A program made the position numbers and the translations under genes. DNA of 64,000 nucleotides, taken from NCBI GenBank assembly GCA_963514005.1, contig OY740812.1, forward strand, positions 9,858,001 to 9,922,000. The letters are read 5' to 3'. Below are positions 6,856-57,774 of the stretch, one piece after another; the stretch's first letter is position 1; the number at the start of each line of letters is the position of its first letter. The notes beneath the pieces were generated by a model that was not told where the DNA came from, did no database searches, and was given only the letters and a program-made list of their open reading frames with translations. Origin of the DNA: Raja brachyura (taxonomy: Eukaryota).

Positions 6856-8539
6856 TGGTCCTTGATTATATTGGCCACTTTCTTGAAGCGATGTGTCCAA
6901 GGAGTTGATAGAGGGGAGGGGGTTGGTGGGTGCGGGGGAGGCTCTTTCGTGTTATGGATTGGGTTATATCCACAACTCTGCAATTTCTTGCCATCTTGGG
7001 CAATGCAGTTGCCAAACTATGTTGTGATGCATCCTAATTGGATTATTTCTACAGCGCATCTTAAAATTTGTAAGAGTCTTGAGAGACATGTTTTTAGTCT
7101 TCTGAGGAAGAAGAGGCAAGCGTAAAAGACTCAAAGAAAGCAGCAAGCATGAACATTGTTACCACAAATCAACATTGTGGTATGACTGTACGGCAAACCA
7201 AATTCCTCGTATGTTGCAAAACATACTTGGCTAATCAAGTGTGATTATGATTATGATTAAAAATAGGAAGACTAAAAGATCATCAGATACTTAAAGGGTC
7301 AGGACAACAGATAACAGCATGACCCTATTACATCTTTTCTCTCAAATTGCTTCCATTCTCAGACGTTTCGTTGGCAGCCCTCATCTCAGGCCTGCCCCAA
7401 TATATTTTGCAACTTCCTGTTTAATTTCCTTCAATCTCATTTCAATCTCACCATAAGACCAAAAGTTGCATAATCAACACATGTTGTAGTTTTGACCATG
7501 GGTTATTATCCTTCCTCAGCCACTGTAAGATTGAGTCCAGACAAGAATTCAGTTCTAATACTGCAAGAATTTGAATAGAACACAAAATGTAGAAGTTAGA
7601 TAAAACGGGAAATAATCTGCTTGCAAGTAATTAACGTAGAGTCACAGTGTGCTCCGGTTTTGAAGCCACAAACAAGGTATTAGGCAACGTAACTCATGAT
7701 GACTATACTTCTAACGTAAGGACAGCACCTGCTTTTCATGAGGTTATGACAGGTTATCAAACTTGTAATTCTACATTCCAATAAAAGTCTAGGTGGGGGG
7801 TGGGGGGGAGGGGGTTAAAGTGGAAGCAACTGCTGGAAGATGACAAGCAAGAACATTAAGACTGCAACCTTTGTGTCCTCGGATACCACCAGAGCCTGTC
7901 CAACCTTTCTTCGTTCGGGGTATCCCAACGAACAAATTGTTTCCTCATACACCAATGATTCAGATGTTGCTCCACTTTTAAAGTGATAATTACCCCTGAA
8001 CATGCAAAGTTTTATCTTTACAGCCAGAGGTAACTTATCCACCACATTTTTTTCCATTGAACTAATTATTCTAAATCAAATACTGAAAGTGTTTGTTTTA
8101 ACTTTCGTTCAAATTTTCAGCATCAACCTCTTATTGCTGGTTCAAAAATCACCATAAGGAGAGGAACAGCATTTTGAGATTTGATTGAGAGCTGACTTTG
8201 GTTCACTTAAGTTACTAATACAAGGTTAACGTTAGCATACAATAATGTTAACTTATGAAGCTATATTGCTTATAGTGTACTGTGTTCTGTTGTGCTGCTG
8301 CAAGTAAGAAATTCATTGTTCTACTTGGGACATATGACAATAAACCATACTTGACTACAAATAATCACTTGAGGTATCAGTTGGAAACATCAGGTATTCT
8401 CTCACTGGATAGAATATGGATTCATTTTTGTTCCTCTTTCTGCTATTTCAGCAACAATGAATGGGTAGCCATGAGACATGTCTTTTGAGAGTTTAGATCT
8501 ATCTGGTTAAAACTGATCTAAACTCCCATAAGACATATC

Positions 8540-10490
8540 TAATGGCTATCCATTGCATTGTAGCTACGGCAGGCAAGGGGAGATTATGGGAGCCTTGACA
8601 AGATCTTTTTGTCTTCTTTAGCCACAGGCAAAGTCCTAAAGGATTGGACGGTAGCTCACATTGTTCCTTTATTTAAGGAAGAAAGAATCCAGGGAATTTA
8701 GGCTTGTGAACCTCATGTTAGTGATAGGGAAACAATTGGAGAGGACTCACTGCAATAGGATTTAGTCCCATTTGGAAGCAAATGGGTTAATTAAGAACTG
8801 TCAACATGGGTTTGTACATGGCACATTCTGTCTTACTAACTTGCTCAAGTTTTTTTGAGGTGACGAATGTTGTTGTTGAGGGTAGGCCAGTGGATGGTGC
8901 CTACATATTGCCTTGATGTTAGTAAGGCATTTGATAAAGTCCACAATGATAGGCTGAACCACAAGATTGAGATGCATGGGATTAACTGTGACTTAGTCAG
9001 CTGGATTCTGAACTGGTTTACTGATAGAAGACAGAGGGTTGCAGTGGAACAACAATATATAGGCTGGAGACCTGTCACTAGTGGAGTTCTGCAGTGATCT
9101 CTACTGGAGACTAGGAACTCTACTGTTTGTAAATTTGCAGATGACTCCAAGATTGCTCGGGCCATGGACTGCACAAAAAGCTGCCAAGATATGCAGCGGG
9201 ATAAAGATCAGCTACAGAAATGACAGATGGAGTTTAATCCAAGCAAATGTGAGATGCTGCTCTTTGAGAGATCAACTGAAAGGGAAAATATCCTATTCGT
9301 GGCATGACCCTTAACAGCATTAATCTTCAAGGGGATCTTAGATCCAAGTCTATAGCTCACCAAAAATGACAAACACAAGTAGATGGAGTAGTAAAGATGG
9401 CACGAGGTATGCTTGCTTTCACAGGTCAGGACATAGAGTACACGAGTCAGGAAATCATGTTGCAACTTTATAGGACTTTGATTAGGCCACTTTTAGAGTG
9501 TTGCATGTAGTGCTGGTTGCACAATACTTAAAGGATATGGTGGCTTTGGACAGGATGTAGAGCAGGTTTAACATGATGCCTGGATTAGTGGGTATTAGCT
9601 ACAGCGAGAGTTTGTACAGACTTGGATTGTTTTCTCTTGACTGTAGGAGATTGCAGGAAGACTTAAAAGAATATATGAGAGACGGATAGGGTAGACATTC
9701 AGATCCTTTTTCCCCTGAATGGAAAAATCAAATACTAGAGGGCATAGCTTTAGGGTGAGAGGGAATGTTTAAAGGAGATGTGTAGTGCAACACACAGAGA
9801 GTGGCGAGTGCTTTGAACAGACTGCCGGGGGTGGTGGTTGGGGCATATACAATAGCAGCAGTCAAGAGACTTTTTATGGGCAATATGGATTAGCAGATGT
9901 AGTGGCCAATTGGCTTCTTTTGTGTGTCATTGGTGATGGCGTGTGTCTTTAAATTTTAGACTGCCCGTTATATTGTGGGTGGGATCCATGACATATTTTA
10001 CAACGTATTTGGAGCAGGTTTCTTGCGCAGAAGCTTAGTTTTTAGTTTAGGTTCGGACCAGCACAAGGAAGGCATACCCTTCGATCATGCGAAGTGTAAC
10101 GGAGACACAAGGAGTTTCCTAACGTTTCATGCAATACGCTGGAGTTCGATGAAGATTATAGTGTACAAGTCGGAAGAAGTTTGGATGTCCATTATTGTTT
10201 TTCATCAACAATAAATAATTTATTAATCAAAAAGACTGTGTTTTGAAGATTTATCTGTGAAGAAGCTCTGAAGGTCTTGGACGGAGAGCTCGCATGCGTA
10301 TAACGACATTCCCCTTAACCATGTAGTCCACTTAGCGGCTAGAGGGAGTAACCTCTTGAACGATATAAAAATCTGCCTCTACAGCAGGTAAAGGAGGGAT
10401 ATAGATTATGTGCAAGTAGATAAGAGATGGTTTGGCATTATGCTGGGTGCAGGCATTGTGGGCCAAAGGGCCTTCTCTTGTGCTGTTCTA
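8540..10490 (+). mobile_element. Degenerate CR1 LINE (RT region to 3' end), interrupted by a solo LTR
   Basis: LDVSKAFDKV...WILNWFTDRRQRVAV...SGVLQ RT motifs; CR1 3' UTR resumes at 10384. Confidence 0.8.
9898..10383 (+). mobile_element. Solo LTR (486 bp)
   Basis: TG...CA ends with short inverted repeats TGTAGTGGC / GCCTCTACA; 5-bp TSD GCAGA/GCAGG; AATAAA at 10210; cleanly interrupts a CR1 3' region. Confidence 0.7.
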
Positions 10491-19251: not shown

Positions 19252-19402
19252 CATTAAAGAGGCTTGGCATATCTTGCTGGTGATCTAGTCGTTGACTGAG
19301 GCTAAAGCTGGTGCTAAGTCCATCTGTGTGACTGTTCCATGACATTGAGTGAATTCCAGAACTGTAGTTGCCACTGAGACTGGGCATTCCCTTTTGGGAA
19401 TC
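19252..19402 (-). CDS. MAP3K14: MAP3K14 exon 14
   Basis: DSQKGMPSLSGNYSSGIHSMSWNSH...DMPSLFNG versus NIK ...LSSGVHSWSSQ...TPSYFNG; TAATAG| acceptor, |GTGAGC donor. Not in the ORF track. Confidence 0.9.
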
Positions 19403-19765
19403 CTATTAAAAAAAATGTATATTCCAGGTGAAAGATCAGTTGTATCACTAGAACTTCTTAATCTTAACCATCGTAACCCACATTAAAAAAAATGTTTTGG
19501 TCTACTACTTCCTCTTTGGTACCAAAATGCTAAATGACCAGTAGAAACTATATTAGGCTGCTATTTGAACATTTGATTAACTAATTGAAAGGTACAGCAA
19601 GGAAAATAGATCCTTTAGCCCACCCAGTCTACACTGACTATTGATTCCCCATTCACTATAGTTCCATGTTTCGCATCCACTCCCTACACACTAGGGACAA
19701 TTTACAAATAACAATTAACCAGAGGACCTAGGAGGAAACCCCATACAGTCACAGGTACAATATGC

Positions 19766-19907
19766 TTCTTCTTCTTGCATATGGCATGCACAGCCTAAAG
19801 TTGTAGGACAACTTGTTCTATTTGATTTTATTTGATTGTGCACGCCGGGTTGATTGCATTCGTCGAAACAGGGTGGACCACGTGAAGGTTGCAATCATCC
19901 TCCCCGG
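19766..19907 (-). mobile_element. ~140-bp retroposon (SINE-like) with (GAA)n tail, nested in a V-SINE-like element
   Basis: TSD ACAATATGC at 19757-19765 and 19908-19916; (TTC)n on the plus strand is a 3' GAA tail; it interrupts the host SINE. Confidence 0.85.
19852..19905 (-). ncRNA. Minimal HDV-like self-cleaving ribozyme fold (54 nt)
   Basis: Minus strand: GGGGAGG AT GATTGCA ACC TTCACGT GGT CCACCCT GTTTCGA C GAA TGCAATC. This gives P1 (G1-U wobble, one A-A mismatch), P2 7/7 bp, P3 3/3 bp, a 7-nt L3, and a C-GAA junction in HDV order. Confidence 0.75.
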
Positions 19908-20569
19908 ACAATATGCAAACTCCCTACAGTCAGCACCCGAGGTCAGGGTCGAACCCAGATCTCTGGTGCTGATGGGCAGCAGCTCTATCAGTTGCACCAC
20001 TGTACTACCATTATAAGTTTCTCTTTTCCCCCCTAATAACAGTAACCTGGAATGGCTACTGTATCACTGAAGATTTGCTTACCAAGGATGAGCAATTTCA
20101 GTTATGCATATGAGGGGTGCTTTTTGGAAGGATATTCCACCCTTCCATTTTCATACAATATCACATTTATCCCTCCATGATTTCTTAAAATAAATCTTGC
20201 GCTATTCACACACTTCTTGTCATCACACTTTCCATCCCATATTTCAATATAAACTCATTTGTCTACGTTCGTTCATTAATGCTCTCTTTCTCTCACCATA
20301 GATGCTGTCTGATCTACTGAGTGTTTTGACTTTCTTTTTCATTCTGAGTAATTGGTTATTTAATCTGCTCCTGGAATTTTCCTTAACAATCTCATAAAAT
20401 GTTTTCCCTGATCTTAACTTTCCATCTGTAACTGGATACAAGATCAACCAGTTAACTTGCATTGATACATATTGTCACTATTCTGGTCACTTATCCTTGG
20501 TAATAAACATAGGGAGTGATAATGTGATAGGCCTGTTCAGTATGGCAATGTATTATTGGTTATATATAC

Positions 20570-20676
20570 CTTGTCGTAGTCATCCATTATGCTATATGCA
20601 TCGCTGCTTAATACATCCAGTATGTGATCCTCCAACTTTTCAGGGAATACTTGCGATAGGTTATAAAGTAAAAATT
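20570..20676 (-). CDS. MAP3K14: MAP3K14 exon 13
   Basis: EFLLYNLSQVFPEKLEDHILDVLSSDAYSIMDDYDK versus NIK ELFLNSLSQPFSLEEQEQILSCLSIDSLSLSDDSEK; TTTCAG| acceptor, AAG|GTATAT donor. Confidence 0.9.
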
Positions 20677-20899
20677 CTGAAACAGAATTCAATAGAATCA
20701 GATTTAAAATTGTTGCATACATCAGTTTCAGCTACTAGCTTCAAACACATTCAGGATAAATTGATCTCGGCTGTTGGTTGCTCGCCAACTGCAACGTGAC
20801 GATGGAAAAATCTGGATCAGAGTTATTTCAAAAACAGAACATAGCTGGTTTGTGAGCTAGAGTTCATGGGTGTGTCAATTCTATTCTCTGCTGTATTAG

Positions 20900-54970: not shown

Positions 54971-57774
54971 TTCTATATCCGTGTTATGTGTTACAAACAG
55001 CATGACAGTGGAACATGCCTTGCATGTCAGTCTATACTAATATTAAGAAAAGAATTGAGCCAAAAATCATTTAGATGACAGAAATGGCCAGTTCTGACAC
55101 AGACAGAATAAATGAGAAAAAGTTGGAAAGTTCGGTATTAAATTTCTCTCTGTCCCAGTTTTGATGGAGGGTTTTCACCTGAAACATTAACTCTGCTCTT
55201 TCCTCAGAAACGTTCAGCTTTTTCTGTATTTATTTAAAATTCTCTACATTCAAGAGCTGTGGAAACTCAGCCATTATGTTCATTCAACCTAGAAAGCAAT
55301 AGATTTCAGGAAATTTACAGATAGTGCTGAGAATAGTGCTTAGGTGAAAGATCAGCTAATACAGCTGCTGCAAATCGGCAATCTAGTGTTGATCTTAATC
55401 AGTGCTGCCCATTTGGAGTTTGCACAACATCTACTGTGGCCTTGTAGGTAGCCTCTTTTGTACTAACATCATCTAAGTTGGTAGGTAAACTGTACAAAGT
55501 GTGGATTGCATAATTTACATCTTATTGTACCACAAACATGGGCAAGAGGGAAAAGATTAGCATTCAATGAAAATCTTAGTTAGACCATGCTTGAAGAAAC
55601 ACATTTTTAAAATTTTTATATTGGTAACTCAGGATGAATCAATCCATCTGAATATAAAATTGAAAGCTAGCTTTGGTTTTGACACAGAGTAACAGTATTA
55701 GTCACCAAATAAAACAAGATGGACACAAAAAGCTGGAGTAAGTCAGCGGGACAGGCAGCATTCCTGGAGGGAAGAACACCAATTGAATGCAAAAATTTAA
55801 ATCCTACTTAAAAACAGCATCTCAAATCCAATTTGGTTAAATTCCACAATTAATTAATAAAAAAAGTTCTTTAGAATCACAATAAGTAAATTCTGTGAAC
55901 AAAATCTCCTGAGCAGGAGAAATGTAGAAATGGTTAATGGAAGTGGGTGTTGATCCTTTAGATGGCTAAATTGGTATTACCATGTTTGACAACAGGTCAC
56001 CTCGTTGCTAGGCACTTAAGTTCTGTGAGTCATCAGCAAACTATATTTGGGACAGTACTTTGGATATGGATGGTTGCACTATTAAACACTGCAGGTTAAA
56101 TTTCTTCCTCCCACATTCAGGGTCATGGCTTCTGACAGCTGTTATAGTCACCACCTTCTTTTAAAAGAGCAGTTGTGTTTGTGCAGCAAACACTAACACT
56201 AATATAGTGCACAATATGCAAAATAATATTTAGAATAACTCAGAACTTAGAAAAGGTTAGATAAGGAGGAGTCAATGAATTTGAAAGCTCAGCAGGAAGG
56301 AGGAATGATAATTTAAAGGAAAATACTTTTACATGGCATGTGAAGACCTTTACAAATATCACTGCTAATCAGCGTCCAAAACTGCATTAACAAGCTGAAC
56401 TTCCGAGTTCCCTTTGCACAAAGCAACCCAACCTGATGAAATTCATATATTTATTTATATTTCCTTATGATATTCATAAAAAGCCATTTAGCCCATCAAG
56501 TCTATCCTAGCTCTCAAGAGTGATTACCTAATAGGGTCGTTGGTAGGCACACAATCTTTCCCCCAGGATTGGGAAATCAAGATATCGATTACATAAGTTT
56601 AAGATGAGAGTGGGAAGATTTAATATCAGCCTGTGGGAAACTTTATAACCCAAAGAGTGGTATGTAAATAGAACAAACTCTGAGAGGAAGTGTTTGAGGC
56701 AGATGCAATAACAACATTTAAAGGCATTTGGACAGGTGTGTGGATGGGACAGGTGGAGAGGGATATGGCAAATACAGGCAAATGGGTATCAAGGCCATTT
56801 TGCTTGGCATGGATGAGTTGGGCCAAAGGGCCTGTTTCTGTGCTCTGACATTTTTAGTTTCCTCACAGTTACCAAATCCATGCTGGCCGGTAGTTTAATT
56901 GTAAATACATTGGACAATTAAACTACCGACCAGCATGGATGTGTAACTGTGAGGAAACTGTAGTACCCAGAGCAAATCCAGTTGTTCACAGGAAGTACAT
57001 ACTAATTCCACACAGAAAGCTCTGGAGGGATCGCAAAGACTGTGTGGTAGCAACACTGTCTGCTGAACCACCGTGCTGTCCCGAATTAAGTACCAACCAT
57101 TAATCCAAAGTTTCCAGAATCCAATTCAGAGCACTGGCTTTTCAAATTTAGTTATGCCTGAATTTGAGATTAGTGTTTTATTAAAAAAATTATTGACAAG
57201 TAACATTCGGGGAATATCAAGATGATCATAACTATGGCTTTTTTACACGCCAGTTCTTTCCAAAGCTGTGCTGAAGGTGTTATCAACATTCTAACATCTG
57301 CTGTTCCCCACTGCTTAAGGGAGGTTATTTAAATAAGAAATAATTTAATTTAATTACTTTTTGCCACAGAGAAGAAGGCAGAACAAGCACAAAAATCAGT
57401 GTTTACAGGGTGCAATTGACTGCATCAACATTACTCACATTCAGTCAACACTGACTGAACAGATTCCACTCTCTCAACTTCTGGCTGGTGTGTGACCATT
57501 TAAGGTGTACAGCAGTTATGATGCCTTGATTCTTTGATAGTATACACTGCCAACAGTATATTGGACACCAAAATAAAACAAATCCTGGCTGCTAGAAGAC
57601 AAGAATAACCCAATGATAATATGCAGCACAGGAGAGGTATCCAACAACAGATACTTGCCAAACAAAAACTATACTTCTGCTGCCTGGTCCAACAATAATT
57701 CATCAAGCTTAATATATAATCTGTGGTGTCATACTGCCTGACATTGCCACCATGACAGAACAGCCTTTGGCATC

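Follow-up and report, generated by a model that had tools for sequence, protein, structure and literature searches.

The NIK locus and its intronic insertion

The stretch of DNA analysed here (the window: 64,000 nucleotides of Raja brachyura contig OY740812.1, positions 9,858,001 to 9,922,000) carries 15 mapped coding exons of MAP3K14/NIK, the largest of which is 91% identical to Leucoraja erinacea NIK. The 1,167-nt intron that follows the 12th of these coding exons (20569-19403, minus strand) harbours a short element in the sense orientation, with the donor 664 nt and the acceptor 363 nt away. The first-pass annotation of this DNA had placed the insertion, likewise in sense, in "NIK intron 13"; gene and orientation hold, and the number is right only given one non-coding first exon, such as human NIK presumably has, which would make the host intron number 13. 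A contig from run X1 (guessed to be RNA, and from organism A rather than the source skate, an organism that may or may not carry the insertion) joins the exons flanking the host intron at its GT..AG ends. The element is itself nested in an older tRNA-type SINE with A- and B-box-like motifs, the 3′ limit of which is approximate, being placed from contig depth and the usual ends of such SINEs.

20570..20677, minus strand: NIK/MAP3K14 coding exon 12, upstream of the host intron
19252..19402, minus strand: NIK/MAP3K14 coding exon 13, downstream of the host intron
19585..20010, minus strand: older tRNA-type SINE hosting the insertion (81-89% to other copies)
19906..19916, minus strand: 5′ copy of the 11-bp target-site duplication
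19766..19905, minus strand: whole element, a bipartite non-autonomous Vingi-type retroposon, 140 bp
19852..19905, minus strand: putative HDV-like ribozyme of 54 nt that lacks a P4 stem (from descriptor and sister-family covariation)
19829..19905, minus strand: stretch homologous to the partner-LINE 5′ end (85-94% to L091, L101-L105, L111, L119 and L120)
19807..19828, minus strand: junction absent from the LINE (a short near-duplicate of the LINE 5′ part together with a brief inverted copy)
19766..19806, minus strand: stretch homologous to the 3′ end of the LINE, spanning its last codons, stop and 3′ UTR
19766-19776, minus strand: GAA tail
19755..19765, minus strand: 3′ copy of the target-site duplication, with 1 mismatch

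Because the duplication 19906-19916/19755-19765 is 11 bp long with one mismatch, the element measures 140 bp and begins exactly at G1 (19905). The duplication-flanked, GAA-tailed insertion described previously is thus real, its length being 140 rather than 142 bp, and its 5′ end, formerly placed near G1, is now fixed on that nucleotide. The 5′ target-site copy retains the majority base of the host SINE (13 rows, one of them the window itself). The tRNA-SINE head lies immediately 5′ of the predicted ribozyme (19766-20010, minus strand), here predicted to be disabled, a single-copy snapshot of a tRNA + Vingi 5′ + Vingi 3′ layout. Elsewhere, the window contains palindromic repeats at 2469-2640, 8450-8565 and 56856-56959; the first is a member of a family, MITE-like by look, of which the window holds about ten pieces.

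An HDV-like fold without a P4 stem

HDV-like ribozymes are described as nested double pseudoknots of P1, P2, P3 and P1.1 (PMC6326823, PMC13635239), with a G1-Y pair, U..CG in L3 and a catalytic C at the start of J4/2 (CRRA in PMC6326823). The head of the element can be laid out in this form as follows.

19899..19905, minus strand: P1 5′ strand (G1 = 19905, A5 = 19901)
19896-19890, minus strand: P2 5′ strand
19889-19887, minus strand: P3 5′ strand
19886-19880, minus strand: L3, with U20, C22, C24 and G25
19879-19877, minus strand: P3 3′ strand
19876-19870, minus strand: P1 3′ strand
19869, minus strand: G37 of the lone P1.1 pair
19868-19863, minus strand: 6-nt stub in place of P4
19852..19862, minus strand: J4/2 and P2 3′ strand, whole stretch
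19862, minus strand: predicted catalytic C44 in J4/2 (C here in 72/83 copies)
19858-19852, minus strand: P2 3′ strand

In this numbering, P1 comprises nt 1-7/30-36, P2 nt 10-16/48-54, P3 nt 17-19/27-29 and L3 nt 20-26, and cleavage is predicted between 19906 and 19905 on the minus strand. All the parts recognised in the first-pass annotation (P1, P2, P3, L3, the P4 stub and C-GAA) lie where it had put them; the single P1.1 pair, C22-G37, was absent from that description. P2 has 7 bp, or 8 bp if U9-A55 is added, J1/2 is 2 nt long in the element and 1 nt in the NIK copy, and the P1-to-P3 spacing of 9 nt is that of the Rfam HDV model. The HDV core bases (the G1-U36 wobble, U20, C24, G25 and C44-GAA) are present in the NIK copy. 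Every pair of the nested double pseudoknot forms in the family majority, and A5-A32 in P1 is the sole broken pair of the NIK copy. With its 6-nt stub the head has no P4 stem, and so matches the minimal rather than the standard HDV class.

An HDV descriptor matched at 19905 alone in the 128 kb of window strands and nowhere in 5.12 Mb of Markov control. Since this descriptor was written with knowledge of the NIK-copy sequence, the independent test of the fold is covariation in other families, described below. The comparison with Rfam HDV and CPEB3 models proposed in the first pass came back negative: RF00094, RF00622 and RF02682 gave no match at E<=10 on the window, on copies L146 and L201 or on LINE L103. 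Single-strand (nested) folding of the element is unremarkable (z = -1.33), a measure that is uninformative for a pseudoknot.

A dispersed family whose copies start at G1

A genome-wide search, as had been proposed, revealed a multi-copy family. Relatives of the element are 91-97% identical (40 scored of 1,493 candidates, window excluded); an exact 23-mer from its middle has at least 4,382 genomic matches, and a similar motif with one open position at least 9,059, the reversed control giving 0 in both cases. These counts are lower bounds, a few being inverted twins. The sample analysed in detail comprises the first 90 of 100 listed 23-mer places, all of them on one chromosome (C1) and all carrying the window's base at the open position, with L128 and L129 a duplicated pair.

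Within this sample, 67/90 copies can be aligned from nt 1 and 81/90 from nt 7 or earlier, the other 9 being truncated or rearranged. Among the 74 copies with both a head and a scorable target-site duplication, the duplication ends exactly before G1 in 31 and within 1 nt of it in 60, and no sequence upstream of G1 is shared; as anticipated in the earlier annotation, 5′ ends stack at G1. The duplications are mostly 11-13 bp long. Dispersed copies, variable target-site duplications and a simple tail are the marks of independent retrotransposition. A T occupies position -1 of G1 in 40/73 full-length copies, and one additional base lies between duplication and G1 in 20/74; both may possibly reflect non-templated addition by the reverse transcriptase.

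Every pair and core base is intact in 24/90 copies, and one pair is broken in 18 more. Scaled to the 9,059 matches this would correspond to ~2,400 intact copies genome-wide, an extrapolation from one variant and one chromosome. The sample divides into two subfamilies (64/90 and 26/90), each ~5% off its own majority, or 3-4% when CpG sites are set aside. Of the two, subfamily b is nearer to the partner LINE described below, with which it shares C-UAA, versus C-GAA in the NIK copy; the catalytic C, U20, C24, G25, G1-U36 and the J4/2 A are conserved in both subfamilies and in the LINE. Position-wise mutation rates revealed no selection on individual family copies, which look unselected because ribozyme positions mutate at tail-like rates (1.4-4.7% vs 3.3%); C44, a CpG site in one subfamily, is mutated in 13%.

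Some arrangements of copies deserve a mention in their own right. L128, L129 and L175 are tail-to-tail inverted pairs, the flanks of the first two being common, as in a duplicated segment. One short element is inserted within a partner LINE (L109:502-639) and another, in the opposite orientation, within a different Vingi-type locus (L096:3695-3835).

A Vingi-type LINE shares both ends of the element

The autonomous partner was reached through a PF14529 search (150 scored of 25,643), which led to L064, thence to L091, whose start matches the element, and to its family. The 30 best PF14529 loci were rejected as partners, belonging to another LINE group without the head, and one of 20 lower-ranked picks (L064) led to Vingi. 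Both element ends are found ~3.1 kb apart in L105, at 94% identity over 68 nt (5′) and 95% over 41 nt (3′). Element nt 1-77 and 100-140 are common to L105 and other LINE copies, the 3′ part being 84-95% identical to L105, L107, L109, L110, L113, L114 and L115, and the shared tail comprises the LINE's last codons, stop and 3′ UTR; the element itself has no ORF. The inverted copy within the junction (19807-19828) pairs with the beginning of the tail part in a hairpin, and we infer that this junction arose by template switching.

The interior of L105 holds pieces of APE and RT as well as a CCHC motif at the C terminus, the latter recognised by eye. Pfam detected PF14529 and RVT_1 on the partner LINE but, across the 7 open pieces that were scanned, no RNase H; matches to ARL17 and Exotox-A_cataly were far below cut-off and were taken as chance. 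Its intact protein relatives are single ORFs of ~1,000 aa with APE and RT and without RNase H, and include a 22-member Anolis cluster; the Anolis relative P0010 we take to be a Vingi. This arrangement fits the description of Vingi as a compact single ORF with APE and RT and no RNase H (PMC13708176), and we therefore regard the partner as Vingi-type, an assignment set by domain layout. The proposal that an Ingi/Vingi- or RTE-type LINE mobilises the element is thus supported, in favour of a Vingi-type LINE that shares both ends. The first-pass reading as a SINE-like family with a ribozyme in place of a tRNA head needs adjustment: its HDV-type head stands, and the element is rather a bipartite non-autonomous LINE as defined in PMC4494074 and PMC5786205.

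The partner-LINE copies examined are all broken and ~85-90% alike, several of them without the first 3-12 nt. In full-length LINEs of two other families (L092 and L098), the duplications end exactly at G1. We also observed that the L105:2461-2937 protein matches one from the eel Synaphobranchus kaupii (82% identity over 69% of the query) and a JGI piece (85% identity), and that P0002 and P0003 are closer to it than are other skate Vingi families, a pattern for which horizontal transfer of the partner LINE is a possible explanation.

The fold covaries across six LINE families

By protein homology, five other Vingi-type LINE families were recovered from the skate genome (L064/L100; L081-L086; L088-L090; L092/L095; L093/L094/L098). 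Each opens with the fold described above, in a different sequence, and the fold lies ~160-210 nt before the APE motif wherever that motif was detected. In the heads of L092 and L098, Rfam HDV/CPEB3 models score 24-27 bits at the predicted place (gathering scores, 35-50). Between-copy homology begins at G1 in families A and B1, and at or a few nt off it in C2.

Across 13 heads from 6 families, 90.1% of the 142 cells of P1, P3 and P1.1 are paired, versus 72.5 +/- 2.3 in shuffles. The covariation score is 0.563, compared with 0.241 for shuffled and 0.13-0.25 for slid alignments, and both-sided changes occupy 26 cells as opposed to 8.6 in shuffles; the number of pairs with a two-sided change (7) was attained by 44/500 shuffles. 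Two-sided changes are present in P1, P3 and P1.1, and compensatory ones include C-G to U-A in P1.1, A-U to G-C in P3 and G1-U to G-C in family B1. P2 is paired in 90/96 cells, with sequences that differ from family to family, a count for which the 3′ strand was picked by best pairing. The rows of this alignment are related, the three B2 rows being a single duplicated locus, and the aligner shifted two rows in P1; L093, L094 and L105 (5′-truncated) and L091 (redundant) were left out of the 16 heads. Taken together, the P1/P2/P3 pairing is conserved in that it covaries across six families, and the compensatory changes in sister families bear out the assignment of the first 54 nt as an HDV-type head, in a form that lacks the P4 stem. 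The region between P1 and J4/2 measures 7 nt in the element and 18-48 nt in the fitting sister-family heads.

Among metagenomic Vingi-like loci (80 kept, of which 17 had the APE N-terminal half and 13 of these at least 150 nt upstream), 0/13 passed a strict or loose HDV descriptor, which counts against the fold being general, the loose version being passed by 5/390 shuffles; a P3/L3/J4-2/P2 core was seen in L268, by eye only. The first 16 nt of the family A head occur in tandem, twice, at L064:842-874. L088-L090 (C15, C6 and C31) have both flanks in common, including an upstream Vingi RT piece, and to judge by their sequences are one duplicated composite locus, not three insertions.

A proposed origin and the internal-promoter alternative

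With a family that has common ends, G1 starts and target-site duplications, with pairing across six LINE families and with the lesion of the NIK copy all directly observed, we propose, at a probability of roughly 72%, that the element is an internally deleted Vingi-type LINE with a minimal HDV-like head that would cleave before G1, the NIK copy being a passenger. In the cycle envisaged here, host Pol II would read through source copies, and the head would fold and cut the RNA just before G1. The kept LINE 3′ end likely recruits the LINE reverse transcriptase, and the Vingi protein would insert the RNA in trans, through target-primed reverse transcription that leaves duplications of 11-13 bp, each new copy then beginning at G1 with a working head.

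The strongest competitor, which we consider improbable, is an internal promoter at +1, comparable to Pr77, that would set the 5′ end, the P4-less fold being a slow or dead relic with a protective or protein-binding role. Such a promoter would yield the same fixed 5′ ends, and L1Tc Pr77 is indeed a promoter starting at +1 that is also a ribozyme (PMC3185411); furthermore, R2 templates receive a cap-like protection from the HDV fold (PMC13708176), and neither the element nor the partner head has an Rfam match. P4 has been lost, and the very short J1/2 is a concern for the ribozyme reading; one ribozyme whose P2 has 12 bp cleaved little when its spacer was 1 nt (PMC4908430), although the P1-to-P3 spacing of the skate head, at 9 nt, is no shorter than in the Rfam HDV model. 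However, the core bases retained in both subfamilies and the LINE, the catalytic C among them, speak against a relic, natural P4-less ribozymes are active (PMC10879173, PMC6326823), and promoter and ribozyme are not mutually exclusive.

The NIK copy as a probable, weakened passenger

Returning to the ribozyme-headed, internally deleted LINE as the preferred reading, the NIK copy shows 8 differences from the family majority. Position 5 is U in 77/81 copies and A in this one. The A-A mismatch in P1 reported in the first pass is indeed seen, as A5-A32, and is predicted to weaken P1+P3, from -12.4 kcal/mol in the family majority to -7.6 kcal/mol (a loss of ~4.8). In addition, inclusion of 20-30 nt of natural flank lowers the predicted P2 probability from 0.99 to 0.00, as 19906-19918 are predicted to engage nt 37 and 42-52 of the ribozyme: C-1 would pair with G37, which removes P1.1, and nt -13 to -2 would pair with nt 42-52, C44 among them. 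This flank/core duplex has -11.3 kcal/mol, compared with a median of -5.4 for 73 other flanks; an alternative 7-bp hairpin, in which the flank pairs with nt 6-12, is less stable at -5.8 kcal/mol than the helix of flank and nt 37-52. Inhibition by the flank is a prediction only, because the folding program takes no account of pseudoknots or of the order of folding during transcription, and 4/73 other flanks are as strong. Upstream pairing and P1 extension are reported to inhibit L1TcRz (PMC3185411).

A contig from organism D is identical to the window over 19875-19963 (two runs, one study), and thus carries the same insertion with the same mismatch, while its intron differs at 16 of ~1,250 sites; insertion and mismatch therefore predate the split from organism D. 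The A5-A32 mismatch and a flank that traps C44 and P2 would be expected to slow cleavage and to let splicing of the 1,167-nt intron win, and the NIK copy is probably a passenger, weakened and neutral.

The opposite view, already raised in the first-pass annotation, is that this copy is active and cuts NIK pre-mRNA 664 nt past the donor, tuning output as proposed for CPEB3. It could draw on the sense orientation, the short intron, the intact core bases, a P2 extendable to 8 bp, and the identity of head and junction in organism D across an intron that has otherwise diverged; slow natural ribozymes exist, CPEB3 being an example (PMC13635239). Yet an 89-nt identity is expected at 1.3% divergence, ribozyme positions in the family mutate like the tail, P1 is mismatched, the flank is predicted to be inhibitory, with C44 trapped, and the intron is spliced in X1. 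We thus find cutting of NIK pre-mRNA poorly supported and quite unlikely, and it is unlikely to matter, since a related species has the same lesion and a spliced contig crosses the intron. That the element is a common Pol III SINE headed by a tRNA and resembles HDV by chance, as its short length, high copy number, simple-repeat tail and a folding z of only -1.33 might suggest, is refuted by the homology of the head to a LINE 5′ end and by pairing that covaries across families, and neither a tRNA-type B box nor a tRNA was found in the element.

Relation to known retroposons and ribozymes

The architecture described here is already known from NARTc, RIME, R2 SIDEs and Vingi derivatives. The NARTc/L1Tc and RIME/ingi pairs likewise comprise a short non-coding element that shares the 5′ end of its autonomous partner; an HDV-like ribozyme sits at nt 1, has one P1.1 pair and is sensitive to upstream sequence (PMC3185411, PMC4035085). 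Unlike NARTc/L1Tc, of the trypanosomatid Ingi clade, the skate element resides in a vertebrate, its partner has no RNase H and its tail is GAA; compared with L1TcRz, the putative skate ribozyme has 54 rather than 77 nt and no P4. R2 SIDEs of Drosophila similarly fuse a 5′ ribozyme to a LINE 3′ end through internal deletion (PMC3414825), but R2 is an RLE element specific to an rDNA site and its SIDEs are rare, whereas the skate element is of the APE type and dispersed in thousands of copies. Vingi-1_EE derivatives in the hedgehog and SINE2-1_ACar are also bipartite Vingi derivatives (PMC5786205, PMC4494074). The NIK copy, preceded by a tRNA-SINE head, resembles SINE2-1_ACar in its order of tRNA + Vingi 5′ + Vingi 3′ parts; of 5,391 candidates in the skate 40 were scored, and it was the single such chimera among them, with no amplified tRNA-SINE/ribozyme chimera besides it.

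As for the fold, minimal HDV-like or theta ribozymes such as drz-Mtgn-1 are also P4-less nested double pseudoknots of ~50 nt with the catalytic C first in J4/2, but have been assigned to gut phages and tRNA processing (PMC10879173); the skate fold, by contrast, heads a vertebrate retroposon whose sister families retain a longer P4 region. The mammalian CPEB3 ribozyme is HDV-like, lies in sense in an intron and has a weak P1.1, but it is single-copy and conserved across mammals (PMC13635239), whereas the NIK copy is one young, damaged repeat copy with no sign of selection.

In the literature searched, we found no Vingi ribozyme and no P4-less vertebrate HDV ribozyme, and Vingi is absent from the six ribozyme-bearing clades listed in section 23 of PMC5786205. 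The finding is the family together with a fold spread across the clade, the NIK copy probably being incidental. It would extend 5′ HDV-like ribozymes to Vingi-type LINEs, with a predicted fold in six families of one vertebrate genome, and would place at high copy in a vertebrate a P4-less minimal ribozyme assigned to phages in PMC10879173. It also bears on a question posed in PMC5786205, namely why bipartite non-coding elements arise from RTE, Ingi, Vingi and R2 only, since an element whose head cleaves itself would not need a promoter. RNA gene-insertion platforms make use of Vingi 5′ UTRs (PMC13708176), and a ribozyme head would affect template design. More tentatively, skates might hold thousands of intact copies of what would be among the smallest natural HDV-like ribozymes (54 nt, P4-less), dispersed by a Vingi LINE, many of them in introns and cutting pre-mRNAs during their synthesis, and the Vingi clade as a whole might be ribozyme-headed, including the lizard element used for gene writing.

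For NIK itself there is probably little consequence. As 24/90 sampled copies keep every pair and core base, intronic self-cleavage can be tested genome-wide, and, if many intact intronic copies do cut pre-mRNAs, the skate genome would be a natural mutational scan of the ribozyme and offer a direct test of how far introns tolerate cleavage.
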